DNA of 49,628 bases. Origin: Escherichia phage JMPW1. Numbering within the stretch: position 1 is the first letter of the stretch; every line of letters starts with the position of its first letter. The translations under genes were made by a program, and so were the position numbers. Where the stretch lies: the sequence record NC_041874.1. The stretch is one strand, 5' to 3'. Below the pieces are notes generated by a model, which worked only from the letters and a program-made list of their open reading frames with translations, ran no database searches and was not told the DNA's origin. Shown piece by piece: positions 525 to 32,255 of this stretch.

Positions 525-1040
525 ATGAGCAATACCAATCAGGAATTAAAAATCACCGATATGATTCGACTAACCTGCGATGCAATGTATCGCGACAAAG
601 GCATGAATGAGTTCTCTTTCGTGGCTGATGATATGGCCCTCGAGGCCGCGCGATTCTACTTCCGTGACCAGGAGGTAAGTGATAGCGATCTTGAATCTGC
701 CGCTGCCGGATGGGTGGACCAGAACCAGGGTGAGGTGGAGAAGCGATTCAAGTCTGCTTTCATTACGCCAATCATTACCCGGCACTTTTGCAAGTATGGC
801 AAGGTGGCAAAGGTGAAGGTAGGCCGGAATGACGCTGCAATCACAATGATAACGGTTATCGTTACCGACGAAGAGATTCCCGTGAAGAAGCGCCGCAGTC
901 GGAAGAAAGTTAGCCTGGCCGATTGCCTGGATTCGTTTGTGGTTGATGTGGGTAAACTGGCTGATAGCGAATTGATGACTCGTGACGTAAACGAGATCGT
1001 TCGCCAGATGAAGGCGCATATCGAAAAGTGTGGACTGTAA
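525..1040 (+). CDS. hypothetical early protein (171 aa)
   Basis: ORF with RBS AAAGAGGA 9 nt upstream of ATG; first gene after left control region. Confidence 0.6.
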   Translation: MSNTNQELKITDMIRLTCDAMYRDKGMNEFSFVADDMALEAARFYFRDQEVSDSDLESAAAGWVDQNQGEVEKRFKSAFITPIITRHFCKYGKVAKVKVGRNDAAITMITVIVTDEEIPVKKRRSRKKVSLADCLDSFVVDVGKLADSELMTRDVNEIVRQMKAHIEKCGL

Positions 1041-1326: not shown

Positions 1327-1797
1327 ATGACAACCATTACCGTATTTCTGGCTAAAGATGAGATTGATGGCGAAATGTCATTCTTCGCATTTGAGCACAA
1401 AACCGGATCGCACTGGCATATGTATAGCCGCTACACGGTTATCGATATCAACTCATACCGCGCAGGCTCACTTACTGAAAAGCTGGGTTGCTTCATTGGA
1501 GCTATCAAGGTGAACAATGGCTGCGAGTGGGCAGATGAGCACGAAGAGCGCCGCATGTGCAATATGATTAACCCGGTCTATCTTGAGTCGTTCGAGCTTG
1601 ATGCTGATGTGAACATTAAGGTGAGAAAGTCTGGTGAGTTATTGCCAGGGATGCGTGTGCTGACTGGTTACTCGGGCCGTAAGGTGTGGCGCACCGTATC
1701 GAAGATTCGCCAGCGTTCTGCAACATGCTACAGCGTATTCTTTGAAGATGGCTGGAATATGATGTCCGGTAGTGAGGTGAAGTATCTCACCAAATAG
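1327..1797 (+). CDS. hypothetical protein (156 aa)
   Basis: ORF; its TAG stop is the TAG of the next box. Confidence 0.55.
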   Translation: MTTITVFLAKDEIDGEMSFFAFEHKTGSHWHMYSRYTVIDINSYRAGSLTEKLGCFIGAIKVNNGCEWADEHEERRMCNMINPVYLESFELDADVNIKVRKSGELLPGMRVLTGYSGRKVWRTVSKIRQRSATCYSVFFEDGWNMMSGSEVKYLTK

Positions 1798-1843
1798 CAC
1801 GAATTGTTAAAACCGGATCGGGGTATCTTGCTATAGTTACCCC
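1794..1843 (+). promoter_or_regulatory. Early promoter cassette: box + IR GGGGTA/TACCCC enclosing -10 TATAGT
   Basis: Box ATAGCACGAATTGTTAAAAC 1794-1813; IR 1820-1843; CCAATCAGAGGA RBS follows. Confidence 0.6.
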
Positions 1844-1875
1844 ATCGAAACGAGATACCAATCAGAGGAATAACC

Positions 1876-2106
1876 ATGTCAATCGTCAAGAACCAGCAAG
1901 CAATCGATTAAACCAATAACAACCGCTTTGCTATTTTCATCACATCGATAGGTCGCCGATTTGCAGTCAAAGCCGTTCCGGGTGGATACAAAACCTACAT
2001 GGAAGATAAAGGAAAGTGGGTGTGGTGCGAAAACCTTGCAAACTTCCTAGTCTGGAATGCAGACCTCCAGGGCTTTGATGATATCAGCACCTTAATTGAG
2101 GAATAA
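1876..2106 (+). pseudogene. Small gene with in-frame TAA at codon 12 (1909-1911); frame continues open to 2106
   Basis: ATG 1876 sits behind a full cassette and RBS; same frame reopens after TAA and runs to TAA at 2104-2106. Confidence 0.3.
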
Positions 2107-2112
2107 ATAATT

Positions 2113-2340
2113 ATGCCACGTTACAATAAACAGACTAAACTCACCCGCGTAAACGGGCACATGATTCCGGCTGAATCCACTCACTACGCAATGGGCGCAA
2201 AGCACGGAGTCTATTTCAAGTGGCGCGGTCAATGGAACTTCACGGCGGTTAGTAATTTCTACATGCGCGTCCCAGGTATTGACCCGCAGACGGTCGTAGA
2301 GGACTCAATCGGCAACAACAAGATCGAGGTGCTAAAATGA
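2113..2340 (+). CDS. hypothetical protein (75 aa)
   Basis: ORF with RBS GAGGAATAAATAATTATG. Confidence 0.5.
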   Translation: MPRYNKQTKLTRVNGHMIPAESTHYAMGAKHGVYFKWRGQWNFTAVSNFYMRVPGIDPQTVVEDSIGNNKIEVLK

Positions 2341-2447
2341 ACTTCAATACAATTGCTTTATGGTCTGCCGTCTGGTTCTTCTGTATGGGTCATGTCATGG
2401 TTGGAATCGTAGTTATGCTGCTACTGTGTGCGGGAGCGTTCGAATGA
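2337..2447 (+). CDS. putative small hydrophobic membrane peptide (36 aa)
   Basis: ATG overlaps upstream stop (ATGA); translation MNFNTIALWSAVWFFCMGHVMVGIVVMLLLCAGAFE is one TM-like segment. Confidence 0.35.
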   Translation: MNFNTIALWSAVWFFCMGHVMVGIVVMLLLCAGAFE

Positions 2448-2617
2448 TGCGCATTCTGATTTGCATGATGGCGGCGGTCGCACTGGCTATCCTGGTAGTG
2501 TCCGGCTGCGGAGAGGCCAAAGAGCGATGCCATGAAACCGGAAACCAGGTTACTACTTTCGTGATGGTTGGCAACGTATTGCTACCAATCACATCAAATG
2601 AAATCACTTGCGAATAG
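2444..2617 (+). CDS. putative small lipoprotein (57 aa)
   Basis: Signal-peptide-like N-terminus ending in lipobox LVVSGC; start overlaps stop of preceding peptide. Confidence 0.4.
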   Translation: MMRILICMMAAVALAILVVSGCGEAKERCHETGNQVTTFVMVGNVLLPITSNEITCE

Positions 2618-2626
2618 GATGTTAAA

Positions 2627-2818
2627 ATGGCTGATTTTATGCACCAAATGATTGCAGTATTCAAAGGTAGTGATGACCAGGAGGTGAAAGAGTGCTTTAC
2701 TGTAGACAAGCCTTATAGCGCATCGCTAACCAGCTTCGGGAATATCTCATTGCTTGATGATAACGGCGACCCCTGGGTATTCGACGAAGACACTGATTGC
2801 TTCGAAATTAAAGAATAG
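2627..2818 (+). CDS. small highly acidic protein (63 aa)
   Basis: ORF rich in D/E; stop TAG shared with next box. Confidence 0.5.
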   Translation: MADFMHQMIAVFKGSDDQEVKECFTVDKPYSASLTSFGNISLLDDNGDPWVFDEDTDCFEIKE

Positions 2819-2864
2819 CACTTTTTGTTAAAACTCAATATCGGGGTTGCGCTATAGTAACCCC
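2815..2864 (+). promoter_or_regulatory. Early promoter cassette: box + IR GGGGTT/AACCCC enclosing -10 TATAGT
   Basis: Box 2815-2834; IR 2843-2864; -10 2853-2858. Confidence 0.6.
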
Positions 2865-2889
2865 ATCGACAACAAACGAGGACACTAAC

Positions 2890-3378
2890 ATGAAAATCAA
2901 ATTGCTTTGCACTGGCGGTTACAAGGGCTTTACTCGCGACCTGGAAGCGGATCCTATCGTGATTGATGCGGTGAAGTGTGATGATAGCCTCGGCGGCTAC
3001 CGCGTGAAGGTTGACGACCTGGTGAAAGCTGGCGTGTACGATCTGGGCTATGGACTTTCGGTTAGCCCGGTAGTTGGTCCGGCAGACTTCAACGAGAAGG
3101 ATGGAACGATGTTCTTCTTCGAATGGGAAGTCCAGGCAAATCCTAAGCCGCGCAAGGTTCGTCTTCTCAGTAATGGCGGCTACCCGATGCGTCCAGGTTA
3201 TGAGAATCGCACATTCCCGGTTATCGTTGACTTTGAAGAAATCACCGCACACTTAGCTTATATCAACGGTGAACAGCTTCATGCTGTTGGATTCGTGGGA
3301 TGTATGAATCAAGAGGCGCTATGCTTCTTCCATTGTAAAGCCGAGCCGTTCGATATTGAGTGCGAGTTAGTATACTAA
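2890..3378 (+). CDS. hypothetical protein (162 aa)
   Basis: ORF after cassette; stop TAA is first codon of next box (TAAGCAC). Confidence 0.55.
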   Translation: MKIKLLCTGGYKGFTRDLEADPIVIDAVKCDDSLGGYRVKVDDLVKAGVYDLGYGLSVSPVVGPADFNEKDGTMFFFEWEVQANPKPRKVRLLSNGGYPMRPGYENRTFPVIVDFEEITAHLAYINGEQLHAVGFVGCMNQEALCFFHCKAEPFDIECELVY

Positions 3379-3423
3379 GCACGAATTGTTAAAAGGGGAT
3401 TTGGCCTGACTGGTATAATCCCC
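3376..3423 (+). promoter_or_regulatory. Early promoter cassette: box + IR GGGGAT/ATCCCC enclosing -10 TATAAT
   Basis: Box TAAGCACGAATTGTTAAAA 3376-3394; IR 3395-3423; -10 3414-3419. Confidence 0.6.
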
Positions 3424-3449
3424 GCATAAACCACTAAGAGGAAAGCATC

Positions 3450-3956
3450 ATGTTAAAATTAGAAGACGTAAAATTCCCGATTAAATTTATCAGCCTAGGT
3501 TGCGGTGAAATTACATTCACCAGTGAAGATAAAGGCAAGTGGGACAATGATAAAATGTCTCAGCTTAAGTTGGATTGGTTTATCAATCGGCACAATGAAG
3601 TAAATCCTGAAAACTCAGCCAAGAAGGATTACCATTACATTATTAGTGGTAGTCAGGATGCGTACGAAAAGTATGATGGTTGGAAAATTGTTCGATCAAT
3701 CTTCCACCCCGCAAAGCCAGAAATTAAACCGATGTTACAATGCGCTCAGATCGAGAACATTCCATTGAGCGCGACGCTAAAAGGAGTGCAGCTTGATGAT
3801 AAATCCTGGCTTGAAATAACCGCCACGCCGAAAACTATTGAAGTGCACGACGATATCGTCACTCTTCTATTGCATTACGGCAGCTTTAAGCACAAAGCGG
3901 TATCAGGTGAAATCAGCATTAAGCGCGGAACACTTGTGCGCTATGAGGTGAAATAA
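3450..3956 (+). CDS. hypothetical protein (168 aa)
   Basis: ORF with RBS AAGAGGAAAG. Confidence 0.55.
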   Translation: MLKLEDVKFPIKFISLGCGEITFTSEDKGKWDNDKMSQLKLDWFINRHNEVNPENSAKKDYHYIISGSQDAYEKYDGWKIVRSIFHPAKPEIKPMLQCAQIENIPLSATLKGVQLDDKSWLEITATPKTIEVHDDIVTLLLHYGSFKHKAVSGEISIKRGTLVRYEVK

Positions 3957-4101
3957 TGGCTGCATGGGTTTTGATTATCTTAATGAGTACCGGGCCGGAT
4001 CACGTATACATGGAAAGTCAGCAATCATGAAACAAGGTACGGGAAGTAATTGCAGAGAATAAGCCGTTCGGATATGAAGTAAAAACGATGTGCGTTAAAC
4101 G

Positions 4102-4151
4102 ATAGCACGAATTGCTAAACCTTCCGCAAGGCCATTTGATATAGTGGCCTT
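4102..4151 (+). promoter_or_regulatory. Early promoter cassette: box + IR AAGGCCA/TGGCCTT enclosing extended -10 TGATATAGT
   Basis: Box 4102-4120; IR 4128-4151; -10 4140-4145 preceded by TG. Confidence 0.6.
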
Positions 4152-4185
4152 ATTGAAGCAAGGCAACCAATCAGAGGAATCAGCT

Positions 4186-4392
4186 ATGGCTACACGACTA
4201 ACTCAGTGGCAGATTTACGACAAGGCCTCACGCCTTCGTGAATCGCTTCGCGGACTGACGCCGAATGACCGAATGGAGATTATCGGGCACGCATTGCACG
4301 AACTAACATCTCAGGACGTAATCTATCATTCATGCGGCAATAAATTCTGGAACGTGACATTCGAGGTAAAGAAAGATGAGCAAAACTCATAA
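4186..4392 (+). CDS. hypothetical protein (68 aa)
   Basis: Start placed at ATG 4186 after CCAATCAGAGGA motif; the upstream ATG 4144 lies inside the promoter hairpin. Confidence 0.45.
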   Translation: MATRLTQWQIYDKASRLRESLRGLTPNDRMEIIGHALHELTSQDVIYHSCGNKFWNVTFEVKKDEQNS

Positions 4393-4663
4393 GTTAAAAA
4401 TCGCCCCGATACATTTCATTGGTGTAATGAACGGAACCAAAACGGCAGAGTTCCGCATCAATGACCGCAACTTCCAGGTTGGTGATATCCTTGAGCTACG
4501 CGAGTTCGATCGTGACGACTTTACCGGGTGGGAAGTTCACGCCAGGGTGTCCGATGTTACAGACGTGACGCCATACATCAATCGCGGTTATGACGAGCAA
4601 GAATGCGACTTCACGCAATACGTGATGTTATCAATCAAGCCTTACAGGAAGGTTAGACCATGA
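4376..4663 (+). CDS. ASCH/DUF3850-like (PUA-fold) small protein (95 aa)
   Basis: Motif GTKTAEFRINDRNFQVGD recalled as typical of DUF3850/ASCH proteins. Confidence 0.4.
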   Translation: MSKTHKLKIAPIHFIGVMNGTKTAEFRINDRNFQVGDILELREFDRDDFTGWEVHARVSDVTDVTPYINRGYDEQECDFTQYVMLSIKPYRKVRP

Positions 4664-5298
4664 AATTTGAGTGCGTATCAAGTAGCGGATCTGGTTTTAA
4701 GTGGGGAAAAACTTACAAAGGTGTTCGCGTAAATGATGACAGCTTCATCATTACTGATGAGAACGGTTGCAACGTGAACGTTGTACGGCGTCACGAATAT
4801 CAGGAAATTTTCCTGCCTTATGGCGGTAGCTCAAAATATATCTTCCATCGAATCGTGGATGGTGTTAAATTTAACGACGTAATCGAAGCAATCAACCAAC
4901 TGCATAATAAAGAGGTAAAATTTATGAAATTCGAATGTATCAGCGACAACACTAAAAAATTTACCGTTGGAAAAATTTACAACGTTCCTTCTGAGCACGC
5001 TAAGCACACTTTAGCGCTGACCGACGACACAGGCTGCCAACGCATTGCAACCGTGACGCACAATGGCGAAGGTCTTCGCTGGAACAGCGGCGGCACTAAG
5101 TTCGCAACTTTCGGTAAGAAGCGCAAGCGCAATTTCCGCGTCAACGGCAAGATCAACACCAGCAAGATTAGCAACGTCAAGCCTATTAATGTTGACCACA
5201 AGCCAGAGCTTGATCTTAAAGGCAAGGTGGATATTCCTGATATGGCTTTAGCGATCCTTATTCTTGTTGCTCTAATTTCTATCATGCTCATCATGTAA
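4660..5298 (+). CDS. tandem-domain protein with C-terminal TM anchor (212 aa)
   Basis: Two internal repeats both starting MKFEC..; hydrophobic C-terminus; member of dispersed paralog family. Confidence 0.55.
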   Translation: MKFECVSSSGSGFKWGKTYKGVRVNDDSFIITDENGCNVNVVRRHEYQEIFLPYGGSSKYIFHRIVDGVKFNDVIEAINQLHNKEVKFMKFECISDNTKKFTVGKIYNVPSEHAKHTLALTDDTGCQRIATVTHNGEGLRWNSGGTKFATFGKKRKRNFRVNGKINTSKISNVKPINVDHKPELDLKGKVDIPDMALAILILVALISIMLIM

Positions 5299-5305
5299 TT
5301 TTAAC

Positions 5306-5339
5306 GGGGAATTGGCTCTGAGCGGTTCCCCTTTCTTTT
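5306..5339 (+). terminator. putative intrinsic terminator
   Basis: Stem GGGGAA/TTCCCC followed by TTTCTTTT. Confidence 0.4.
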
Positions 5340-5446
5340 GGAGAAAACACTATGCCAGACTTTTCTAACTGGAATAACGAGCCGCCATCATTTCAGGAGT
5401 TGCTATTCTGCCTCCTGGTCCTGACATTATCTCTTAAGGGTGTTTT

Positions 5447-5665
5447 ATGGCTACTATCATAACAGCAGAAGATGCAGCACGCGACGCAGTGGAAGGAATG
5501 CGCCCAAATACCTCCAGAATAGCACACTACTACAAATCTGAGGTGTCGGCAGTGCAATTGGTCAACGAAATTTTAAGGCTACCACAAGTCGATTCAGCGC
5601 GCGTGGTGACGTGCTTAAAAAATTATTTTTGCATCGCTATTAAAACGAATAGCACGAATTGCTAA
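5447..5665 (+). CDS. hypothetical protein (72 aa)
   Basis: ORF; stop TAA lies inside next box. Confidence 0.3.
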   Translation: MATIITAEDAARDAVEGMRPNTSRIAHYYKSEVSAVQLVNEILRLPQVDSARVVTCLKNYFCIAIKTNSTNC

Positions 5666-5696
5666 AACCTATCAAGGGGAATGCGCTATGATTCCC
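5649..5696 (+). promoter_or_regulatory. Early promoter cassette: box + IR GGGAAT/ATTCCC enclosing -10 TATGAT
   Basis: Box 5649-5668; IR 5677-5696. Confidence 0.55.
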
Positions 5697-5722
5697 ATGC
5701 ACCAACAAACGAGGAAGCACTC

Positions 5723-6169
5723 ATGAAACACTTAATTTGCATTGAAACGCCTAACGACCAGTACACCCTGCACGGCATTGGAATGTTCAAAGGTCACTAC
5801 ATGACAGCAAGTATTCATGATTCGCGTTGCGTCAATGGCGATCTGATGATTACGTCAAAAGAAGTAACTCCGTACATTATGCAGAATCTTGGCAATAACG
5901 AATATATGGCCTACGGATGCAATGCGGTGTACAAGCATATCAAGATCAGAAAACGCGTTGTTCGCGCATTCAAGAAAATTGCAATGAAACAATGGAAGAT
6001 GAGCAAGAAAGATGCTGGACGCTGGGCGCGTAACGTTGCAGATTCATACTTCTACCGTAACGGTGAGTCCTGCCACTTCCTTATCGATGAACTTATGGAA
6101 AACTACGGCGGCGACTTCAGTCAGGGTGGCTTTGACGCTTGGGCTGACTACGAGGTCGATTACTGGTAA
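5723..6169 (+). CDS. hypothetical protein (148 aa)
   Basis: Start placed at ATG 5723 after RBS GAGGAAG; upstream ATG 5681 lies in promoter hairpin. Confidence 0.5.
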   Translation: MKHLICIETPNDQYTLHGIGMFKGHYMTASIHDSRCVNGDLMITSKEVTPYIMQNLGNNEYMAYGCNAVYKHIKIRKRVVRAFKKIAMKQWKMSKKDAGRWARNVADSYFYRNGESCHFLIDELMENYGGDFSQGGFDAWADYEVDYW

Positions 6170-6218
6170 TAGCACGAATTGCTAAAACTTGCTCAAGGGC
6201 ATTTGATAGAATGCCCTT
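6169..6218 (+). promoter_or_regulatory. Early promoter cassette: box + IR AAGGGCA/TGCCCTT enclosing extended -10 TGATAGAAT
   Basis: Box 6169-6188; IR 6195-6218; -10 6207-6212; CCAATCAGAGGA RBS follows. Confidence 0.6.
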
Positions 6219-6252
6219 CGTTGAGTTAAGCAACCAATCAGAGGAATAAATC

Positions 6253-8943: not shown

Positions 8944-9093
8944 ATGGGAATGTTTTGCCAGTCGTGCAAGCAATCTTTCGAAACTGAATTATCAGCAACC
9001 AGTCAGGATGAAGCCATCACGAAAGCAAAAAAACTTTCCGGCGCTAACCTTGACACTCACAAAATAAATATTGAATTAATCAAGGAGATTTAA
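8944..9093 (+). CDS. hypothetical small protein (about 49 aa, start uncertain)
   Basis: ORF 8908-9093 trimmed to first ATG after upstream stop. Confidence 0.3.
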   Translation: MGMFCQSCKQSFETELSATSQDEAITKAKKLSGANLDTHKINIELIKEI

Positions 9094-9970: not shown

Positions 9971-11539
9971 ATGATTCAATGGGAAGACCTTAACGCAACG
10001 CAGAAGTTAGCGATCAAGAAAATGAGCGAGGCCAATTTCGAAAAAATGATTCGGATCTGGTTCCAGCTTATGCAGGCGCAGCAGTTCCAGCCTAACTGGC
10101 ATCACCTTTACCTATGTCACGAAGTGGAGGAAATAATTGCAGGCCGACGCGGCAACACTATCTTTAACGTCACGCCTGGTTCCGGTAAAACTGAAGTGTT
10201 CTCAATTCACCTTCCGGTATACGCAATGCTCAAGTGTAAAAAGGTGCGAAACCTTAACGTGTCGTTTGCCGACAGCTTGGTTAAGCGTAACAGTAAGCGT
10301 GTCCGTGAGATTATCAGCAGCAACGAATTTCAAGAGCTATGGCCTTGCAAGTTCGGCACATCGAAAGACGAGGAGATGCAGGTTCTTAACGAAGATGGAA
10401 AGGTTTGGTTTGAGTTGATATCCGCAGCGGCTGGAGGTCGTATTACAGGTTCGCGTGGTGGCTACATGACGCCGGGATTCTCCGGTATGGTAATGCTCGA
10501 CGATATCGACAAGCCTGATGATATGTTCTCAAAGGTTAAGCGTGAGCGTACGCATATGCTACTGAAGAACACCATTCGCTCGCGCCGTATGCACAACGAA
10601 ACGCCAATCATCGCAATTCAGCAGCGACTACACGCACAGGATTCAACATGGTTCATGATGAATGGCGGGATGGGGATCGAGTTTGATCAAATCTCAATTC
10701 CGGCACTGGTGACTGAAGAATACGGAAAGACGCTTCCTGACTGGTTACAACCATACTTCGAGCGCGACGTTTTGTCGTCTGAGTATGTAGAATTGGATGG
10801 AGTTAAGCATTACTCATTCTGGCCCAGCAAGGAAAGCGTTCACGACCTGTTAGCTCTTCGAGAAGCGGACCAGTATACCTTTGACTCTCAGTATCAGCAG
10901 AAGCCGATCGCGCTTGGTGGCTCCGTGTTCAATTCGGAGTGGTGGACTTATTACGGCAGCAGCCTTGACGCTGATGAGCCGGATCCTGGTAAATATGATT
11001 ACCGTTTTATCACCGCTGATACCGCTCAGAAGACAGGTGAGCTAAACGACTACACAGTCTTTTGTTTATGGGGTAAGAAAAACGATAAGGTTTACTTTAT
11101 CGACGGCATTCGCGGAAAGTGGGAAGCGCCGGATATGGAGAAGCAATTTACCGCTTTCGTCAACCAAGCATGGAGGCACAATAAATCAATGGGGGTGCTT
11201 CGTAAAATCTATGTGGAAGATAAGGCGAGTGGTACGGGCTTAATCCAGAATCTAAGGAAAAAGACTCCGATATCCATCACTCCATTGCAGCGTAACAAAG
11301 ACAAAGTTACCCGAGCTATGGATGCCCAGCCAGTTATTAAAGCCGGGCGCGTGGTTCTGCCAGAAGAGCACCCCATGCTTGCGGAAATTATCGCGGAACA
11401 TAGCGCGTTCACTTACGATGACACGCATCCGCACGACGATATTGTCGATAACTTCATGGACGCTGCAAACATTGAACTACTGACAATTGACGATCCTATC
11501 GAGAGAATGAAGCGACTCGCCGGGATGGTTAAGCGGTAA
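9971..11539 (+). CDS. terminase large subunit
   Basis: Walker A VTPGSGKTE, Walker B-like MVMLDDID, size about 520 aa, followed by portal. Confidence 0.8.
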   Translation: MIQWEDLNATQKLAIKKMSEANFEKMIRIWFQLMQAQQFQPNWHHLYLCHEVEEIIAGRRGNTIFNVTPGSGKTEVFSIHLPVYAMLKCKKVRNLNVSFADSLVKRNSKRVREIISSNEFQELWPCKFGTSKDEEMQVLNEDGKVWFELISAAAGGRITGSRGGYMTPGFSGMVMLDDIDKPDDMFSKVKRERTHMLLKNTIRSRRMHNETPIIAIQQRLHAQDSTWFMMNGGMGIEFDQISIPALVTEEYGKTLPDWLQPYFERDVLSSEYVELDGVKHYSFWPSKESVHDLLALREADQYTFDSQYQQKPIALGGSVFNSEWWTYYGSSLDADEPDPGKYDYRFITADTAQKTGELNDYTVFCLWGKKNDKVYFIDGIRGKWEAPDMEKQFTAFVNQAWRHNKSMGVLRKIYVEDKASGTGLIQNLRKKTPISITPLQRNKDKVTRAMDAQPVIKAGRVVLPEEHPMLAEIIAEHSAFTYDDTHPHDDIVDNFMDAANIELLTIDDPIERMKRLAGMVKR

Positions 11540-11593: not shown

Positions 11594-12877
11594 ATGAAAA
11601 TTGTTAAGCATGATGGATATAACGATATTTTTAACGGCGGTGCAGACGGATCGCCTAAGCCATTCTTTATGTCTGATGCATCATATCACGTCGGTTCTTT
11701 CTACAACGACAACGCAACCGCGAAGCGAATTGTGGATGTTATCCCGGAAGAGATGGTGACGGCTGGTTTTAAAATGTCAGGCGTTAAGGATGAAAAAGAG
11801 TTCAAGTCTTTATGGGATAGCTACAAACTTGATTCAAGTCTGGTGGATCTTCTTTGTTGGGCGCGACTTTACGGTGGCGCGGCGATGGTGGCAATCATCA
11901 ACGACAACCGGATGTTAACCAGTCAGGCAAAGCCTGGAGCCAAACTTGAAGGCGTCCGAGTTTACGATCGATTTGCTATCACTGTTGAAAAGCGAGTCAC
12001 CAATGCAAGATCCCCTCGCTATGGTGAGCCTGAAATCTACAAGGTATCCCCTGGCGACAATATGCAGCCGTATCTGATTCATCACTCAAGAGTCTTTATT
12101 GCTGATGGTGAGCGAGTAACGCAACAGGCAAGAAAACAGAATCAAGGATGGGGAGCATCGGTATTGAACAAGTCACTGATTGATGCAATCTGTGACTATG
12201 ATTACTGTGAATCTCTGGCTACTCAGATCTTGAGACGTAAGCAACAGGCTGTATGGAAGGTCAAAGGTCTTGCCGAAATGTGTGATGATGATGATGCTCA
12301 GTACGCCGCGCGCCTGCGACTTGCTCAGGTTGATGATAACTCCGGCGTGGGCCGTGCGATCGGTATCGATGCTGAGACTGAGGAATATGACGTTCTCAAC
12401 TCTGATATCAGCGGAGTTCCTGAGTTCTTATCAAGCAAGATGGACCGCATCGTCTCCCTATCCGGGATCCATGAGATTATCATCAAGAATAAGAACGTAG
12501 GCGGCGTATCAGCGAGCCAAAACACAGCGCTTGAGACTTTCTATAAGCTAGTCGATCGCAAGCGCGAGGAAGATTACAGGCCGCTTCTTGAGTTCTTGTT
12601 GCCGTTCATTGTTGATGAGGAAGAGTGGTCGATCGAGTTTGAGCCTTTGTCTGTTCCGAGTAAGAAAGAGGAATCAGAGATCACGAAGAATAACGTTGAG
12701 TCAGTCACGAAGGCTATCACTGAGCAAATCATCGATCTGGAAGAAGCTCGCGACACGTTGCGATCCATTGCCCCTGAGTTCAAACTCAAGGATGGTAATA
12801 ACATCAACATTCGCGAACCGGAAGAAACAACCGAACCGGAGCCGGGATTAGGGGAGAAGTTAGAAGATGAAAATTAA
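11594..12877 (+). CDS. portal protein
   Basis: About 427 aa, directly after TerL, acidic C-terminus; start ATG 11594 after GGAGGA. Confidence 0.7.
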   Translation: MKIVKHDGYNDIFNGGADGSPKPFFMSDASYHVGSFYNDNATAKRIVDVIPEEMVTAGFKMSGVKDEKEFKSLWDSYKLDSSLVDLLCWARLYGGAAMVAIINDNRMLTSQAKPGAKLEGVRVYDRFAITVEKRVTNARSPRYGEPEIYKVSPGDNMQPYLIHHSRVFIADGERVTQQARKQNQGWGASVLNKSLIDAICDYDYCESLATQILRRKQQAVWKVKGLAEMCDDDDAQYAARLRLAQVDDNSGVGRAIGIDAETEEYDVLNSDISGVPEFLSSKMDRIVSLSGIHEIIIKNKNVGGVSASQNTALETFYKLVDRKREEDYRPLLEFLLPFIVDEEEWSIEFEPLSVPSKKEESEITKNNVESVTKAITEQIIDLEEARDTLRSIAPEFKLKDGNNINIREPEETTEPEPGLGEKLEDEN

Positions 12878-13628
12878 TGGCGTTGCAACACAGTGGCGCT
12901 ATCCTGAAATGAGCGAGCGCGCAATGTCGCGCTCCCTACAGGATGTTGCAGCCAAACTAACTGAAAAAATGCGTGACGAATTAAAGCCGATGAAATTTGA
13001 CGCTACTGACGAAGAGATAGATCAGACAGAAAGGTCATTGCTTGATTACGTCGAATCACTCATCGCTCCGATTATTGGTTCTCTATCATCCGTTGCGCTC
13101 GCGATCTATAAATTCAACTCTAAGCAGTGGCTGCGCATCGCTCGCAATGCTGGAGGTAAGAAGAATCAAGCCGTGATGCTACTAGCCCTGATTGGTCCTA
13201 CCGCTGCCGAAAGCTGGTACTCAGGACAATATAATCTGTGGCGATCGCAGGTGACTACTTCTATCAGGAAATTTGCCGCCAACATGGTTACTGATTTCAC
13301 TGATAAACTTCGTGCGGCATCCGGTCAGGGTAAAAGCAAGGATTTTGTTGTTGAACTTGCTAAGGAGCGATTTGGTATTTACCGTAGCTGGGCCAAAAAT
13401 AGAGCGTCGGGAATTGTCGGAACCTGGAACAGTAGACTGATGCGGCAGCGCATAAAAGACGCTGGTGTATCTTACTATTTCTGGCGCGGGGTGATGGATT
13501 TACGCGAACGTGAAAAACATGTAAGATGGGAAGGTAAGCGCATAGCGGTAGATTCCGATCACGTATTCCCGGGTGAAGAATACAACTGCCGCTGTTGGGC
13601 TGTTCCAGACTTTTCTACAGGAGATTAA
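12867..13628 (+). CDS. minor head / head morphogenesis protein (putative)
   Basis: Gene order portal then morphogenesis protein; 253 aa with C-terminal CRCW motif. Confidence 0.45.
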   Translation: MKINGVATQWRYPEMSERAMSRSLQDVAAKLTEKMRDELKPMKFDATDEEIDQTERSLLDYVESLIAPIIGSLSSVALAIYKFNSKQWLRIARNAGGKKNQAVMLLALIGPTAAESWYSGQYNLWRSQVTTSIRKFAANMVTDFTDKLRAASGQGKSKDFVVELAKERFGIYRSWAKNRASGIVGTWNSRLMRQRIKDAGVSYYFWRGVMDLREREKHVRWEGKRIAVDSDHVFPGEEYNCRCWAVPDFSTGD

Positions 13629-17492: not shown

Positions 17493-17903
17493 ATGAATCA
17501 AGAAACTTTAATTGCAGCTGTTGAGCAAATGCGAAAGCTGGTTCCGGCACTTCGTAAGGTTCCAGACGAAACGCTTTATGCGTGGGTAGAAATGGCTGAG
17601 CTTTTTGTATGCCAGAAGACCTTTAAAGACGCATACGTCAAAGCGATCGCTCTTTATGCATTACACCTTGCTTTCCTTGATGGGGCGCTAAAAGGTGAAG
17701 ATGAGGATCTGGAATCGTACTCACGCCGCGTTACGTCATTCTCACTGAGCGGTGAATTTAGCCAGACTTTCGGAGAGGTTACGAAGAACCAGTCAGGGAA
17801 CATGATGCTTTCTACGCCGTGGGGTAAGATGTTCGAACAGCTTAAAGCGAGACGCCGTGGTAGATTCGCATTAATGACAGGACTCCGTGGAGGATGCCAC
17901 TAA
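17493..17903 (+). CDS. putative head-tail connector/adaptor
   Basis: Gene order; start trimmed to ATG after terminator. Confidence 0.35.
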   Translation: MNQETLIAAVEQMRKLVPALRKVPDETLYAWVEMAELFVCQKTFKDAYVKAIALYALHLAFLDGALKGEDEDLESYSRRVTSFSLSGEFSQTFGEVTKNQSGNMMLSTPWGKMFEQLKARRRGRFALMTGLRGGCH

Positions 17904-19860: not shown

Positions 19861-19881
19861 CAACCAATCAGGAGAAACATC

Positions 19882-20554: not shown

Positions 20555-23428
20555 ATGGTTGATAAGGTAGCAGGTCTGTCGCTTGACGTTGATGTGTCAA
20601 CAGTGCAGCGCGCCGTCAAGTCACTGAAAGAGTTTTCAAAGGCCAACGACCAGGCCGCTGATTCTATGGGTTCTTTAATCAATGAGTCAGAGGTTGCAAA
20701 ACAGAAGGCCAAAGAACACGCTGAACAACTAAGGCGCCAGAGAAAAGAGTATGAGGCCGTGGAGAAGGCAATCGATCCTACAGTATCAAAAATGGAAAGG
20801 TTGAAGATTGCATCTCAGCAGCTTGATAAACTCTGGCAGCAGGGAGTCGTTCCAGATGAGACGTTTTTCCGTTTGGGTGAAATGCTGGATCTGCAAAACG
20901 CAAAACTTGCTCGCAGCCGGGCTATGCTTACGGAAGAAGGTCAGGCGGCATTGCAGGAAGCGAAAGCAAAAGAGCAGGCGGCAGCACGAAGCAAGGCGTT
21001 CATGGATGCCCTGAATGGTCAAGTTAACGCGATCGGCAAGACTCATGCTGAATTGATGGAACTGAAAGCGGCTGAGCTTGGTTTATCGAAAGAAGCAGCA
21101 CCACTAATCGCAAAACTTAAAGATCAAGGCCGAGCTATGAATGCAGCAGGTATTAGCGCCGGGGAATACAGGCAAGCAATGCGAATGCTTCCTGCACAGA
21201 TTACCGACGTCGTTACATCTCTTGCGTCCGGCATGCCAGTTTGGATGGTTGCCATCCAGCAAGGCGGTCAAATCAAGGACTCGTTCGGCGGGATTGGTAA
21301 TACGTTTAAAGTGTTGCTGAGTTATATTAATCCAGTCACAGCAGGTATTGGCGTTCTTGTTGGTTCGTTAGGTCTTCTGGCGAAAGCTGGTTATGACTCT
21401 TACAAGTCAATAACTGATATTCAGAATGCGCTTATTGAGACTGGCGGTTATGCAGGTGTTACGGCTGAAGATCTTGATTCAGTGTCTAAAAAGATCGCGC
21501 AGACAAGTAACTCAACCATTGGGAGTATTCGCGAGATTGTAACGGAGTTGGCAAGTTCTGGTAAGTACACCCGCGAGCAGATCCAGAACATCACTAAGGC
21601 TACCGCAGAGTGGTCAGCGTCAACAGGAAAATCAGCAAGTCAAATTATTTCTGAGTTCGACAAAATCGCAAGCGATCCGGTAAAAGGTCTGAAGAAGTTA
21701 AATGAGCAATATAATTTCCTTGAAAAAGGGCAGCTTACCTATATCGATACATTAAGCCGGACGAAAGGAGAAACTGAGGCAGTATCTGAAGCAACGAAAT
21801 TATTCGCCGACGTAATGGAAAAGCGAATGAAGTCAATAGCGGATAATGCTACCCCTCTGGAAAAAATGTGGAACGATATTAAACAATGGGCTTCGGACGC
21901 GTGGGGATGGGTGGGTGATCATACACTTGGGGCGCTAAACCTGATTATTGATGTGGTTCAGGGTACAGTGATTCAGGTAAAAATGATTCTTGCGAAAGGT
22001 GACGAATACATCTCAAACTTTATTGCCTCTGCGATTAAGGCTACACAGTCTCTTCCTGGTATGAGTGATTTCGGCGCTGATGTACTGAAGGAGCAGGAGA
22101 ATATTGTAAAAAGTTCTCGCGACAACTACGATCAGTTATCTTCAGAGCTTGACGCTATTAACGCTCGTGTAGAAAAAGGAGAGATGGGATACATTGAAGC
22201 AATGAGGCAGCGTCGCACTCTTGAAAAGCAGTACAGCGAGGAAACTAAGGAGGCAATAAGGAAAGAAGCAGAAGAGATCGAGAAGCGAAACCGAGAACGA
22301 AATAAGCAGTCGAAAATTGTACGCTCACCGACAGAGCAATTCGACAAGGAGTTAATTTCACTCAAGGCTCAACTTAAGGTATTGCAGGAGCACAAGGAGA
22401 TCGGGCAAAAACTTTCCGCACAGAGAAAGGCGTTGTTTACAACTGAGGCTACGATCGCTGTTCTTCGCGAAGCCAGCTCTAAGCGTCAGTTGTCTGCGGA
22501 AGAAAAAGCGTTGCTGGCAAGTCAGGAGAGAGTTATTGAGCTTGCAAAACAGAAGGCCGAGATTGGCGATCAGATTGTTAAGCAACAACAGTTGAATGAT
22601 CTTACCGATAAATCTCTGAAGTTTGTCAATGAGATGACGGCGGCGACAGAACAGCTTAACGCGTCACGCGGTCTTAGCACGCGCGAAATGGAACGACAAG
22701 CGGAACTGGCTAAAATAACCACTGATTACATCAACTCTGGAGGTAGTGAGGGAGACGAAAAACTCCAGAACATGATTAAGGCGCAAAATGATTACTACGC
22801 TGCGGAAGATGCCAAGCGTGCTGACTGGTTAGCTGGTGCTGAAAGTGCTTTTGCTGATTACGGTGATGCAGCAATGGATATGTACGGCAATGTTAACGAT
22901 ATCGCGTCAAGTGCACTTAACGGAATGTCAGATATGATGGTTCAATTTCTGACCACAGGAAAAGCGAACTTTGAGGACTTTGCGAAAAATATCATCGGCA
23001 TGATTATAAAGATGATTGCTCAGATGGTAATCTTCAATACGATCTCAGGCATGATGGGCGGTAAGACGTGGAGCTTTGCTGGAGGGGCGTCGTCTGGTGC
23101 TTCTGCGGCATCACAGGCAACCCCTACACCTGCCGCTTCTGTTTTTAGATCTGCATCATCCGGCGGGGCCGCTGTATCACTTGCTGCCGCAGCGGGTAGC
23201 GTGGCAACCTCTGGATTCAACGCATCAAACTCGGCGCCAAAGGCGATAAACCATTCAGGAGGTGGAACGGTAGTTGATGTTAGTGGAATGGAGGTGAGAG
23301 TTGACAACGGCTCAGATCCGAGGGGGATTTCTCAGGGTGTAGAAATGATGTTCAAAAAGATGATTCGCGAGTCTTGTTCGCAGGGCGGCGAGGTTTATAA
23401 TTACATTCAGGAAAAAACAGGAGGCTAA
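20555..23428 (+). CDS. tail tape measure protein
   Basis: About 957 aa, coiled-coil-rich, Gly/Ala/Met-rich hydrophobic segment, follows frameshift chaperones. Confidence 0.85.
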
Positions 23429-24479: not shown

Positions 24480-25210
24480 TTAGTGCAAAAATTAAACTTG
24501 AAATTATGACTCACGCTCAAGAAGAATACCCACGCGAATGCTGCGGGGTAGTCACCCAAAAGGGCCGATTGCAAAAATACCATCGCGTTGATAATGTACA
24601 TCGCGATCCTGAGAATCACTTCATGATGGACGCAGTGCAATACGCATGTATTGAGGACGACGCAGACTCAACCACGATCGCAATTGTCCACAGCCACACC
24701 GGTGACGGAGCTACAACTCTTCCCAGCGCTCACGATACGTGCATGTGTAATGAGATGGAAGTGACCTGGATTATTGTTAGCGTGCCGGAAGGAGATATGC
24801 GCTTTGTGAAGCCTGAGAAATTGCCCCTGATTGGTCGCCCGTGGTCGTTAGGCTCCTTTGATTGTTACGGCCTTGTGATGGCGTGGCATAAAGAGCATGG
24901 CGTAGAGTTGCGCGATCGCCGATTGAATTTTGAATGGTGGAAGCCTGAGCACGGACTTAATCTCTATCAGGATTATTACAAGCAAGATGGATTCGTAGAG
25001 ATTCCAGATCAGAATAACCCGTCATTCGGTGATATGGTAATCATGCAGATAGGGCAAAACGTTCCGGTATGGAACCATGCAGGGATTTACCTGGGAGATA
25101 ATCAGATCTTGCATCATGCCTTCGGCAAGCTATCTCGTCGTGATATTTATTCCGGATGGTATCAGGATCACACTGTTTTAATTGTTCGCCATAAGGATCT
25201 CAAATTATGA
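24476..25210 (+). CDS. tail assembly protein K-like (JAB/MPN + NlpC/P60-like)
   Basis: JAB-type HSHTGDGATTLPSAHD motif; overlapping start (ATGA). Confidence 0.65.
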   Translation: MISAKIKLEIMTHAQEEYPRECCGVVTQKGRLQKYHRVDNVHRDPENHFMMDAVQYACIEDDADSTTIAIVHSHTGDGATTLPSAHDTCMCNEMEVTWIIVSVPEGDMRFVKPEKLPLIGRPWSLGSFDCYGLVMAWHKEHGVELRDRRLNFEWWKPEHGLNLYQDYYKQDGFVEIPDQNNPSFGDMVIMQIGQNVPVWNHAGIYLGDNQILHHAFGKLSRRDIYSGWYQDHTVLIVRHKDLKL

Positions 25211-28800: not shown

Positions 28801-29303
28801 GCGCGAGGCTTGGGAATAATGAGGCAGCACTTTCTCAAAAACTTGATTCGTGGAGCAATGCAGATTCGACTGGTGCAATGTACGGCGTCAAGCTCGGTCT
28901 GAAGTATAACGGCCAAGAATACAGTGCAGGCATGGCTATGTCTCTGATTGGTTCCGGAGCTGCGGTTAAGGCGCAGATTTTGTTTGAGGCATCACGATTT
29001 GCCATCATGAATGGAATGAATGGTCAGACTCAGTACCCATTCGTTGTTGAGAATGGCCAGGTTATTTTAAGTAGCGCGATTATCAAGAACGGATTCATCA
29101 CTAACGCAATGATTGGAAACTTCATCCAGTCGAATAACTATGTATTTAACCAGTCCGGATGGAGGCTTGACAAGGGTGGAACATTCGAAAACTACGGAAG
29201 TGACGGTGAGGGTGCAATGAAGCAAACTAATACCACAATATCTGTTAGGGATGCGAGTGGTCGCCTGAGGGTTCAGATTGGCAGGTTGACTGGTTCATGG
29301 TAA
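25884..29303 (+). CDS. central tail fibre / host specificity protein J-like
   Basis: 1139 aa, last gene of M-L-K-I-J order. Confidence 0.8.
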   Translation: MIQKVISGSKGGSPKPHNPVEMEDNLISINKIKILLAVSDGEIDETFSLKQLMFNSVPVQNEDGSFNFEGVKAEFRPGTQTQEYIKGMEDSSSEVTVNREVTTDNPYTISVTNKTLSAIRIKMFMPRGVRIESNGDKNGVRVEYEVQQAVDGGSFETVLTDVIEGKTMSGYDRSRRVNLPSFNNQVIFRVVRKTPDSNDSNVVDAIQVKSYAEVIDAKFRYPLTGLLFVEFDSKMFPNQLPTISIRKRWKIVNVPSNYDPESRTYNGNWDGTFKKAWTNNPAWVLYDLMINQRYGLDQKELGISVDKWALYEAAQYCDQMVPDGKGGTEPRYLCDVIIQSQTDAYKVIRDICSIFRGMSFWNGESISVIIDRPREPAYIFTNDNVVNGDFSYTFASEKSMYTTCNVMFDDEQNMYQQDVEPVFDREATLRFGNNVTSITAIGCTRRSEANRRGRWILKTNLRSTTVNFATGLEGMIPTIGDVVAIADNFWSSNLTMNLSGRLLEVSGSQIFLPFRVDARAGDFIIVNKPDGKPVKRTISSVSADGKTIEINIGFGFPVKPNTVFAIDRTDIALQQYVVTKIDKGDDDEEFTYKITAVEYDPNKYDEIDYGVNIDDRPTSIVEPDQIPRPENVQVSSESRIVQGMSVETMIVSWDKVPYAVFYDVQWRKDNGNWQNVPQTANKEVYVEGIYAGNYQVRVRSVAGSGTTSGWSNVVAATLTGKQGEPGGPINLTATDDVVFGIRTKWGFSDGSGDTAYTELQQSPDGTVDNASLLSLIPYPQHEYYHSPMPGGNIVWYRVRTVDRIGNVSQWTDFVRGMASTNVDDIIGEISVDIENSPGYEWLVDNATDNAAQNAANAEAAIENALANDKDAIYMKKENGKRKAEYTKSLKLIADETQARVTAIEQLKASFGDQISASNSELREVIATETGALSREIDQLRAEIGDDIQASLTDIREAIANETEARTQADLSLSARLGNNEAALSQKLDSWSNADSTGAMYGVKLGLKYNGQEYSAGMAMSLIGSGAAVKAQILFEASRFAIMNGMNGQTQYPFVVENGQVILSSAIIKNGFITNAMIGNFIQSNNYVFNQSGWRLDKGGTFENYGSDGEGAMKQTNTTISVRDASGRLRVQIGRLTGSW

Positions 29304-30366: not shown

Positions 30367-30592
30367 ATATCGAGCAATCGTGAGACTTGAAGTTTTTCTC
30401 TGATACGTAGTTGAATGAGAATGGGTATCCAGCACGCAATAGCATCTCCTCTCCGCGCATCTTAGATCCAAAAACGTAAACCGAGTACTCTGCGCCTCCT
30501 GATTCATAAATTGCCGTACAAGTGCGCTCAGGCATCGATGAGCAACCAGTCAGGATGAATGCCGCAGCGATAATGGTGATTAACTTTTTCAT
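30365..30592 (-). CDS. small lipoprotein, candidate superinfection-exclusion protein (Cor/Llp-like)
   Basis: Signal peptide ending in lipobox LTGC; lone reverse-strand gene downstream of tail genes; own sigma70 promoter. Confidence 0.45.
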   Translation of the reverse strand: MKKLITIIAAAFILTGCSSMPERTCTAIYESGGAEYSVYVFGSKMRGEEMLLRAGYPFSFNYVSEKNFKSHDCSI

Positions 30593-31116: not shown

Positions 31117-32181
31117 ATGTTCCAAGTATTCACATCAAGTCAGCTTTCTAATGACGAGTATCATAGCAACGAAGGTTGGGCGGCAGAGTATGTAAGCGGT
31201 TCGAGCCTTGCAGAAATTTATCAGACTTGCCCGGCTAACTGGCGATTCAAGAAGAACGAGACGACTAAAGCGCTGGAGTTTGGTACTCAGTCGCACACCA
31301 ACTTTGAGAGCCGAGATCTGTTTACTGCATCGTATGCGCGTTGTCCGGCTCCGGCAGAGTTTAAAGATCTCATTACTTCGCAGGCGGCGCTGGCAGCAAA
31401 ATTAAAATCTTTTGGCCTGAAAGGTACATCCGGTAAGCAGTACCCGGACCTCATCAAAATGATGGTTGATTGTGGCGAAGACCTTAACGTTCAATACCTG
31501 ATTGAACTGATCGCAGAGGCTGAGGCGCGCGCTGAAGGAAAGAAACTCGTCGACGCTGATAAATACGACGCCTGCATGAAGATGAGAGCTATACTTGAAC
31601 AGAACCCCGATCATGAAGCGTGCATCAACAGCGAAACAGCGCAGCGTGAAATCTCAATATTCGGTGAAATATCCGGCGTCAAGGTTAAGGTTCGACTAGA
31701 TCATCTTGACTACAAAGAGAATGTACCAGGTCGTGTACTGACTGGTTATGATGAGAATGGTGATCCGGTATTTGAAGACGTAATTTTCCCGGAAGCACTG
31801 ATTATCACAGATTTCAAAACTACGATGAGCGCCAACCCGTTAGAGTTCCCGAGACTGGCATACAATCACGGTTATTACCTGAAGATGGCATTGCAGCATG
31901 ACCTGCTACGTCGCGCAATCCAGGCTGGCGCTTTTGAAGGAAACTTCCCGGAAGATATTCCGATCGTAGTTCGATTGCTTGCGCAGGAGAAAAAAGAGCC
32001 TTATATCGCACTGGCTTACCGTATGACTATGGAGCAAATCAGGATCGGTCGTAACCAGTACATTAGCGTAGTCCACACTTACAAGGCTTGCTCTGAAATG
32101 GATGTTTGGCCTGGGTACGCTGGCGACGCAAGCGAGATCGAACTTGAAACGCCATCATGGGTGCGTTACCAAAATAAGTAA
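31117..32181 (+). CDS. putative recombination exonuclease
   Basis: First gene of exo-ERF-SSB module; D..D/E.K-like ITDFKT segment. Confidence 0.5.
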   Translation: MFQVFTSSQLSNDEYHSNEGWAAEYVSGSSLAEIYQTCPANWRFKKNETTKALEFGTQSHTNFESRDLFTASYARCPAPAEFKDLITSQAALAAKLKSFGLKGTSGKQYPDLIKMMVDCGEDLNVQYLIELIAEAEARAEGKKLVDADKYDACMKMRAILEQNPDHEACINSETAQREISIFGEISGVKVKVRLDHLDYKENVPGRVLTGYDENGDPVFEDVIFPEALIITDFKTTMSANPLEFPRLAYNHGYYLKMALQHDLLRRAIQAGAFEGNFPEDIPIVVRLLAQEKKEPYIALAYRMTMEQIRIGRNQYISVVHTYKACSEMDVWPGYAGDASEIELETPSWVRYQNK

Positions 32182-32255
32182 ACGGCACAAATAGCTAAAC
32201 AAATAATTAATGAGGTGTTATAATGCACCTCATACACCAATCAGGAGAAGTTAAG

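Follow-up and report, generated by a model that had tools for sequence, protein, structure and literature searches.

The genome of Escherichia phage JMPW1 (NC_041874.1), a T1-like siphophage (Drexlerviridae, Tunavirus) whose full 49,628 bases form the window analysed here, contains a nine-base word, ACCA(A/G)TCAG, that is sharply defined and conserved, and that is over-represented not only in gene leaders but also elsewhere between genes and, in either orientation, within genes. T1-like phages keep this word at about 25–30 places per genome, on both strands, by purifying selection. An earlier, sequence-only reading of the genome had met some of its copies as a conserved extension of the ribosome-binding sites of early genes. 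A recognition site for a trans-acting factor is a more likely description than a ribosome-binding enhancer, and the interpretation favoured below, held tentatively and at slightly less than even chances, is that a sequence-specific factor reads the word on DNA, whether double- or single-stranded.

Definition, copies and conservation of the word

The sequence-only reading listed a 12-mer ahead of the start codons at 1876, 4186, 6253, 19882 and 32256 and, on the minus strand, 46393 and 49466. All seven occurrences were recovered; they end 10–12 nt before the start codon and adjoin the Shine-Dalgarno (SD) sequence. The repeat exists, but ACCAATCAGAGGA is a 13-mer and not a 12-mer, found exactly four times (at 1857, 4166 and 6233 on the plus strand and 49487 on the minus strand), and CCAATCAGGAG is found three times (at 19864 and 32237 on the plus strand and 46412 on the minus strand). 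Counted genome-wide on both strands, CCAATCAG has 13 copies, against 1.56 +/- 1.02 in 100 dinucleotide shuffles (maximum 4), so that the motif does exceed a shuffled background. Six of these copies had gone unlisted: one lies at codons 4–6 of the open reading frame (ORF) starting at 525, and five lie antisense within plus-strand genes (13195, 24834, 28951, 37449 and 39128). Nor does the description of the served genes as early hold throughout, given that 19882 opens the gene of the tail assembly chaperone, a late gene. The gene at 1876–1911, a homologue of T1 ST75 and SA30RD_57, is left with 11 codons by a premature stop at codon 12 (1909–1911; TCA to TAA relative to T1 and SA30RD), with its promoter intact and its leader fully conserved.

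In an unbiased survey of 8-mers in the window, ACCAGTCA/CCAGTCAG (17 and 14 copies, about 2 expected) rank next to CCAATCAG, and only the words of a known direct repeat rank just above them. CCAGTCAG is a one-base variant of CCAATCAG and contributes 14 further copies. When every single-base variant of CCAATCAG was scored over 12 divergent genomes or loci, the form with A at position 4 was observed 88 times against 10.2 expected and the G form, CCAGTCAG, 47 times against 6.9; the T form, CCATTCAG, was weakly enriched (29 against 10.4), and the 22 other single-base variants stayed at background, at about 0.1–1.7 times expectation. The base ahead of the word is A in 78–90% of site groups, and T is rare in the two bases after it. 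Because only A, G and, weakly, T are enriched at position 4 and an A precedes, the unit is defined as A-CCA-(A/G>T)-TCAG, of which CCAATCAG is the commonest spelling.

With A or G at position 4, the word has 27 copies in the window, 12 on the plus and 15 on the minus strand: seven in leaders, one antisense in a promoter spacer, one at codons 4–6 of a gene, 13 antisense-coding and five sense-coding, so that about 18 of the 27 lie inside genes.

1857..1865, plus: leader copy ACCAATCAG, its AG opening the SD sequence AGAGGA; ATG 1876, truncated ORF of 11 codons
4166..4174, plus: leader copy ACCAATCAG followed by AGGA; ATG 4186, 68-residue protein, first gene of an operon with a DUF3850 protein
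6233..6241, plus: leader copy ACCAATCAG followed by AGGA; ATG 6253, polynucleotide kinase/phosphatase
19863..19871, plus: leader copy ACCAATCAG followed by GAG; ATG 19882, tail assembly chaperone; abuts the minus-strand marbox 19841–19860
32236..32244, plus: leader copy ACCAATCAG followed by GAG; ATG 32256, Erf-like annealing protein
46405..46413, minus: leader copy ACCAATCAG followed by GAG; ATG 46393, 138-residue protein upstream of a DUF3987 helicase
49479..49487, minus: leader copy ACCAATCAG followed by AGGA; ATG 49466, 70-residue protein upstream of a DNA methyltransferase
535..542, plus: CCAATCAG, sense, codons 4–6 of ORF 525–1040
1660..1667, minus: CCAGTCAG, antisense in ORF 1327–1797; intact in 10 of 10 relatives
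3406..3413, minus: CCAGTCAG, antisense in the spacer of the promoter at 3376 (CTGACTGG-TATAAT on the plus strand); intact in 14 of 14 relatives
8999..9006, plus: CCAGTCAG, sense in ORF 8908–9093
10737..10744, minus: CCAGTCAG, antisense, large terminase gene
11919..11926, plus: CCAGTCAG, sense, portal gene
13188..13195, minus: CCAATCAG, antisense, head morphogenesis gene; intact in 14 of 14 relatives
17789..17796, plus: CCAGTCAG, sense, virion gene
22821..22828, minus: CCAGTCAG, antisense, tape measure gene
24827..24834, minus: CCAATCAG, antisense, minor tail gene
28944..28951, minus: CCAATCAG, antisense, tail protein gene; the sole site not intact in T1
30546..30553, plus: CCAGTCAG, antisense, cor gene
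31738..31745, minus: CCAGTCAG, antisense, exonuclease VIII gene
33115..33122, minus: CCAGTCAG, antisense, gene of a protein resembling single-stranded DNA-binding protein
37442..37449, minus: CCAATCAG, antisense, SNF2-type helicase gene
39121..39128, minus: CCAATCAG, antisense, VRR-NUC gene
39202..39209, plus: CCAGTCAG, sense, VRR-NUC gene
40933..40940, minus: CCAGTCAG, antisense, ORF 40704–41105
45433..45440, minus: CCAGTCAG, sense, DUF3987 helicase gene
47462..47469, plus: CCAGTCAG, antisense, ORF 47129–47515 (minus strand); intact in 8 of 8 relatives

The sites follow one another at a mean density of about one per 1.8 kb over both strands, and more evenly than chance would have it, with a coefficient of variation of the gaps of 0.68 (P=0.019) against about 0.95 at random. 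The 12 plus-strand and 15 minus-strand copies are interleaved with no strand polarity along the window, and no clustering of the word was seen in the window or in Klebsiella phage KLPN1 (genus Webervirus).

Codon usage does not account for the copies inside genes. When synonymous codons were shuffled within each gene, antisense-coding copies numbered 13 against 2.9 +/- 1.5 and sense-coding copies eight against 2.8 +/- 1.4, and none of the 1000 shuffles reached either count; the sense count of eight includes two or three leader copies, as some ORFs were called too long. Selection does act on the bases 5' of the SD core: in 15 relatives of 82–95% identity, conservation is 97.8% at the seven fixed positions, 91.9% in the 40 bases that flank them and 90.8% over the genome as a whole (bootstrap P<1e-4), and several sites switch between A and G at position 4. 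In T1, 25 of the 26 alignable sites are intact, against 64% under the null (P=1.7e-4). Single sites show the same tolerance: the sites in relatives that are orthologous to 3406..3413 have either A or G at position 4 (79% conserved), and the site orthologous to 10737..10744 has A, G or T there in 38 loci across the family.

The wider family was sampled through 71 loci around the polynucleotide kinase gene (54–98% protein identity, 1.23 Mb), in which a uniform base model predicts about 38 copies of CCAATCAG and 450 were counted. Allowing A, G or T at position 4, these loci hold 155 orthologous site groups, of which 50 are antisense-coding, 37 sense-coding, 38 in leaders and 30 in other intergenic DNA. 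Most site groups are limited to one subfamily, and the sites therefore turn over while their number is maintained. KLPN1 carries 25 copies against about three expected, namely 16 of the A form and nine of the G form (1.3 and 1.7 expected) and none with C or T at position 4; seven of them stand in leaders. Its coding copies, 13 against 4.4 and six against 2.0 in synonymous shuffles, are about threefold enriched in both orientations, and its gap coefficient of variation is 0.66 (P=0.018), again against about 0.95 at random. Beyond these phages, remote relatives sharing the replication module (31–33% primase identity) have neither the word nor the marbox promoter repeat described below. Since the two are missing together from these loci, the reader could not be singled out, and phylogenetic profiling through distant primase homologues was dropped. 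A scan of IMG/VR for the 14-mer ACCAATCAGAGGAA gave mostly chance matches, and the viral contigs outside the T1 group that contain it showed no real enrichment and no preceding A; per-lineage 7-mer "dialects" proved too noisy.

Promoter cassettes and genome context

Six of the seven leaders in the window are preceded by a repeated unit of about 75 nt, the upstream part of which is a 21-nt direct repeat, aaATAGCACnnnTTGnTAAAA. This repeat is on record from TLS, T1, Rtp and Rogue1, where it was given no definite function and a role as stoperator, enhancer site or UP element was considered (PMC11447400). The consensus of the marbox, the 20-bp asymmetric site of MarA, SoxS and Rob, is AYnGCACnnWnnRYYAAAYn (PMC2064960), and 19 sites in the window fit its first 18 positions perfectly, where 0.06 would be expected. 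In about 20 cassettes, the marbox 20-mer ends 18 bp (17–21) before a TAnnnT or TATAGT-like hexamer, often with an extended TGn; with transcription starts predicted from the -10 hexamers, this register places GCAC at -47..-44. The same register is seen in the Rob-micF activation complex: Rob binds at -47G and -45A there, and its contact takes the place of that between sigma region 4 and the -35 element (PMC9178005); and the forward orientation of a marbox defines class II (PMC12052159). Judged by its sequence, the cassette is a predicted consensus class II MarA/SoxS/Rob marbox promoter combined with a stem-loop. None of about 40 phage ORFs examined was recognised as coding for an AraC-family protein, so that host MarA, SoxS or Rob are candidate activators of the phage promoters; literature searches for a link between T1-like phages and these activators returned nothing relevant. 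A sigma-54 reading of the direct repeat (TGGCAC-N5-TTGCW) was rejected, as the spacing is wrong and AG stands in place of GG.

A GC-rich stem-loop lies between the marbox and the -10 hexamer, or over the latter, in the cassettes, with about 16 of some 20 folding at z -2.2 to -5.3. Its arms vary between cassettes yet stay complementary, with some G-T pairs, and no U tract follows the stem in the cassette hairpins; the record of the T1-like phage SA30RD labels such hairpins terminators, by prediction only. The cassettes at 4102–4192 and 6169–6259 are 79% identical over 91 nt. Similarity restricted to the cassette also turns up at non-orthologous places in distant phages, which hints that cassettes may be shuffled between sites.

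1794..1837, plus: cassette of the 1858 leader; marbox ATAGCACGAATTGTTAAAAC 1794–1813, 18-bp spacer, TGcTATAGT -10 (1832–1837); GGGGTA/TACCCC stem-loop overlapping the -10
4102..4145, plus: cassette of the 4167 leader; marbox 4102–4121, 18-bp spacer, TGaTATAGT -10 (4140–4145); AAGGCCA/TGGCCTT stem-loop
6169..6212, plus: cassette of the 6234 leader; marbox 6169–6188, 18-bp spacer, TGaTAGAAT -10 (6207–6212); AAGGGCA/TGCCCTT stem-loop
32182..32224, plus: promoter of the 32237 leader; marbox ACGGCACAAATAGCTAAACA 32182–32201, 17-bp spacer, TATAAT (32219–32224); ATGAGGTG/CACCTCAT stem-loop around the -10
46430..46473, minus: cassette of the 46412 leader; marbox 46454–46473, 18-bp spacer, TGaTAAAGT -10 (46430–46435); stem-loop with a G-T pair
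49499..49543, minus: cassette of the 49486 leader; degenerate marbox ATAGCATTTTTTGCTAACGA 49524–49543, 19-bp spacer, TATGAT -10 (49499–49504)
1055–1072, 1794–1811, 4102–4119, 6169–6186, 7542–7559, 36806–36823 and 39315–39332, plus: marbox examples
46972–46989, 48088–48105 and 48552–48569, minus: marbox examples
1820–1843, 4128–4151, 6195–6218, 7564–7595 and 40359–40377, and 48063–48084 on the minus strand: stem-loop examples

The word had been thought to travel with this cassette. Only six of the roughly 20 cassettes bear it, and the nine-base word is for that reason a module independent of the promoter cassette; the copy at 19864 has no sense cassette upstream at all. Compared with sister leaders, the word resembles an 8-nt insertion ahead of the SD sequence: the leader behind the 1794 marbox reads CATCGAAACGAGAT-ACCAATCA-GAGGAA, and the 48569 leader reads CATCGAAACGAGAT-TGAGGAA. 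Within the late region, minus-strand marboxes occur at 16079–16098 and 19841–19860, the second with TGaTAGGAT 18 bp downstream. These would fire antisense into head and major tail genes, and could thereby exert early antisense control of late genes.

As a whole, the window is 99.9% identical to Enterobacteria phage vB_EcoS_IME167 and Escherichia phage vB_Henu5_2 and 88–92% identical to T1, pSf-2, Shfl1 and others, and its gene map was taken over from the annotated records of near-identical and related phages.

0.5–9.3 kb, plus: small early genes
9.4–30.3 kb, plus: packaging, head and tail genes
31–44 kb, mixed strands: recombination, replication and lysis genes
44–49.5 kb: leftward early block

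Among the early genes, 1130–1324 encodes a 64-residue protein matching the Pfam family PF25180, "phage antiviral trigger protein Gp54" (E = 5e-36). The cor and exonuclease genes are separated by about 500 bp of non-coding DNA (30600–31100), which contain GTGTAAC(A/T)G(G/T)TG(TCTATT) repeats, some in each orientation, as well as an AT-rich TATATATA block; this stretch looks like a replication origin or control region. EcoP15I sites (CAGCAG) are heavily strand-biased in the window, with 21 on the plus and three on the minus strand (23 versus three in T1), a pattern that evades type III restriction. The whole window has no Chi site (GCTGGTGG). Five further 8-mers, AGGCCAAA, GAGATCCC, AGATCCGA, GAAGACCT and TCAAGACC, are over-represented, at six or seven copies each against about one expected.

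Possible readers of the word

Family-wide, the sense copies near gene starts concentrate at -20..-17 relative to the ATG, where 28 of 53 site groups begin; a second, small group occupies promoter spacers at -57..-54, and antisense copies show no peak. This fixed place and orientation in leaders makes the earlier phrase "further recognition element" a fair description. An element specific to ribosome-binding sites or to early genes it is not, as the same word is enriched and conserved inside genes in both orientations. The genes served by leader copies are themselves mixed, including polynucleotide kinase, the Erf-like annealing protein, the tail chaperone and small uncharacterised proteins.

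A recognition site read on DNA may accommodate both settings. Intergenic DNA is almost filled by marbox, 18-bp spacer with stem-loop, -10 hexamer and a leader of about 17–33 nt, so that the word would fit only in the leader or the promoter spacer. A leader word is set in sense orientation with its final AG starting the SD sequence (CAG-GAG, CAG-AGGA), an overlap that would give rise to the fixed distance of 17–20 nt to the ATG. A factor bound to the leader copy, or the word in the mRNA, would adjoin the ribosome-binding site and the early transcribed region, and could conceivably gate those genes. Candidate readers are the Cro-like helix-turn-helix protein at 36341–36793 (minus strand), the T7-type zinc-ribbon primase at 35344–36279 (minus strand) or a host factor.

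Several points weigh against this interpretation. Leader site groups favour A at position 4 (31 A : 2 G : 6 T, against about 70 : 40 : 21 elsewhere), and leader copies are sense three times as often as antisense; because of this A bias and sense excess, the word may have a leader-specific role at the RNA level or in translation. None of the candidate readers was tied to the word by any test here. The gene calls in the 71 loci are crude ORF calls, the relatives are phylogenetically dependent and so not independent samples, and the two tests of even spacing reach only P ~0.02 each.

The leader-specific points recur in two unlikely alternatives that place the word in the message. According to one, an A/C-rich word 5' of the SD sequence raises initiation via protein S1 or the 30S platform, the copies elsewhere being unrelated. 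The fixed sense position adjoining the SD sequence would suit such a ribosome-read enhancer, as would the disfavour for G at position 4 in leaders and the short, A/C-rich make-up of the leaders, a feature shared by leaders that have no word, e.g., CATCGACAACAAACGAGGA. Folding of the seven window leaders is also weaker than that of shuffled controls (z +0.5 to +1.6), and the word stays unpaired. No complement to CTGATTGGT within one mismatch exists in the 16S, 23S, 5S, tRNA-Ile, tRNA-Ala or tRNA-Asp of the rrnH operon, whose closest matches have two mismatches and whose best duplexes run to 6–7 bp at internal sites; pairing with rRNA was rejected on this ground, and its absence from 16S and 23S counts against the enhancer. 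So does the restriction of the word to six of about 20 promoter-proximal leaders. As a full account, the enhancer fails because the word is also selected in promoter spacers and in both orientations inside genes, evenly spread: an identical word with the same degenerate position, enriched 3–4.5-fold over synonymous shuffles, is unlikely to be there by coincidence. The leader copies should not be annotated as a generic strong ribosome-binding module. The other alternative, slightly less probable, is an mRNA operator, ACCAAUCAG, bound beside the SD sequence by an RNA-binding regulator of the phage comparable to T4 RegA or RegB, which would repress or cleave a set of messages. It draws on the sense-only peak beside the SD sequence in a subset of genes of mixed function, on the unpaired state of the word and on the DUF3850/ASCH-like putative RNA-binding protein encoded in the operon led by the 4167 copy. 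It is at odds with the site groups that are antisense to genes or in untranscribed promoter spacers, which make up about half, and no evidence ties any phage protein to the word.

About as doubtful as these is a priming signal, whereby a T7-type zinc-ribbon primase would recognise the site on a single-stranded template (3'-TGGTYAGTC-5', primer pppACCA...) and the leader copies would overlap the SD sequence by chance. The word begins with AC or ACCA, and ACCA is one of the primers of the T7 gp4 primase; the phage primase has a gp4-type zinc ribbon (PF08273); and the sites occupy both strands at about one per 1.8 kb, with an even, Okazaki-like spacing in two distant genomes. The nine fixed nucleotides are long for a primase site, however, as the primases known to us read 3–5 nt and not nine. 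The would-be "cryptic" base at position -2 is only weakly conserved outside leaders, with A in 39 of 110 site groups against 33 of 39 leader groups; there is no strand switch around the origin-like region at 30.6–31.1 kb; and phages with a 31–33% identical primase do not have the word, though they do not have marboxes either. A more sweeping version, which is about equally improbable, would have T1-like phages address their genomes with two words: the class II marbox, at more than 20 promoters driven by host MarA, SoxS or Rob (RamA in Klebsiella), and an evenly spaced ACCA(A/G)TCAG, read on single-stranded DNA with nine-base specificity by the T7-type zinc-ribbon primase, the sites having co-evolved with the genome and some doubling as 5' extensions of ribosome-binding sites. 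The order of enrichment at position 4, A > G > T >> C, is also the order of pairing strength with U and hints at an RNA or other nucleic-acid guide that pairs with the word, but no partner RNA was found.

Least credible of all is the absence of function, in which paralogous promoter-leader cassettes would have spread by recombination or codon and amino-acid bias would have produced the word. The 79% identity of the 4102 and 6169 cassettes and the cassette-only matches in distant phages are what such an account would lead one to expect. Neutral cassette paralogy and codon bias are nonetheless contradicted by the presence of the word at 19864, where there is no sense cassette, and inside genes, by conservation above the flanks with only position 4 tolerant, and by synonymous shuffles that never match the counts.

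A number of other candidates were tried and set aside. Conserved RNA structure was rejected: shuffled sequences fold better than the leaders, and over the whole genome the sites have, if anything, a little less structure than positions drawn at random (P ~0.05). A search for known RNA families (Rfam) and tRNAs found none in the window. The reverse complement as the -35 element of internal promoters has no information content at the expected -10 distance. An integration host factor site (WATCAR-N4-TTR) fails for want of TTR and is incompatible with the G variant. Origin iterons do not fit an unclustered word, and the origin-like region holds different repeats; a polar guide word akin to Chi or KOPS does not fit the missing strand polarity. 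Pairing of leader copies with complementary mRNA copies would mostly meet an A-C mismatch, and nearby opposite pairs number two against about 1.5 estimated at random. The 3' end of E. coli tRNA-Asn, TCCAGTCAGAGGAGCCA (sequence confirmed), reads as the G form of the word followed by AGGAG, and this 3' end serves as the attachment core of several genomic islands; the likeness was noticed post hoc, with about 0.2 such core-word matches expected, and was judged a coincidence.

If the word is a genuine recognition site, a sequence-specific reader (a regulator, a replication factor or a host protein) acts genome-wide, and the word is a handle for finding it. T1 belongs to the classical phages; its relatives abound on E. 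coli, Klebsiella, Shigella and Salmonella, and how they regulate their genes is largely uncharted. Reading the T1 direct repeat as a marbox is probably of greater consequence than the nine-base word, as it makes a dependence of the phage on host MarA, SoxS or Rob testable and would tie phage expression to bile salts, antibiotics and oxidative stress.

Comparison with known systems

Literature searches for the word found no description of it. Conserved sequence beside the SD sequence in a subset of phage messages is a trait shared with the epsilon sequence of T7 gene 10 and the targets of T4 RegA and RegB. Epsilon acts by complementarity to 16S rRNA, which is absent from the phage word, and the RegA and RegB targets are confined to mRNA leaders, whereas the word is also found inside genes. 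The primase sites of T7 and T4 (5'-TGGTC-3', giving pppACCA, and 5'-GTT-3', giving pppAC..., respectively) are alike in the AC or ACCA with which the word starts, in their presence on both strands and in the gp4-type zinc ribbon of the phage primase. They differ in fixing 3–5 nt where the word fixes nine and, to our knowledge, primase sites are not maintained by selection.

The stoperators of mycobacteriophage L5 are oriented with transcription and serve a lysogenic repressor. Like the word, they are short and asymmetric and exist in tens of copies in intergenic and coding DNA (27–30 copies of the word in the window, 25 in KLPN1). Stoperators have been described as inhibitory transcriptional elements located between genes and in the direction of transcription (PMC11447400). 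In contrast, the present phage is virulent, and the word obeys no orientation rule inside genes (13 antisense to 5–6 sense copies in the window, and about threefold enrichment of both in KLPN1).

The cassette, and not the CCAATCAG word, resembles the class II promoters of MarA, SoxS and Rob (and RamA), e.g., micF (PMC9178005, PMC12052159, PMC10268841). These likewise have a forward 20-bp box overlapping the -35 position, GCAC at -47..-44 as in Rob-micF, a poor -35 element and, frequently, an extended -10, and the phage boxes GCACTTTTTGTTAAA and GCACGAATTGCTAAA are near the best sites from chromatin immunoprecipitation sequencing. Literature searches found no precedent for more than 20 class II marbox promoters in one 50-kb virulent phage. 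The nearest relatives in layout are the PeSL cassettes of the T4-type phages RB49 and phi1, whose stem-loops terminate upstream transcription and whose cassettes mediate gene shuffling (PMC2839356). Both kinds of cassette are small intergenic units between short genes of unknown function, which begin at the stop codon of the gene upstream, continue with a host-type promoter and a GC-rich stem-loop and close with the SD sequence and start codon, and both place the stem-loop between the upstream element and the -10, or over the -10, with G-T pairs included. The upstream element is a consensus marbox in the T1-type cassette and a -35 hexamer with an AT-rich region in the PeSL cassette, and no conserved word beside the SD sequence has been reported for PeSLs (PMC2839356). 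In layout, the T1-type cassette is thus PeSL-like, and in sequence and register it is a predicted class II marbox promoter.

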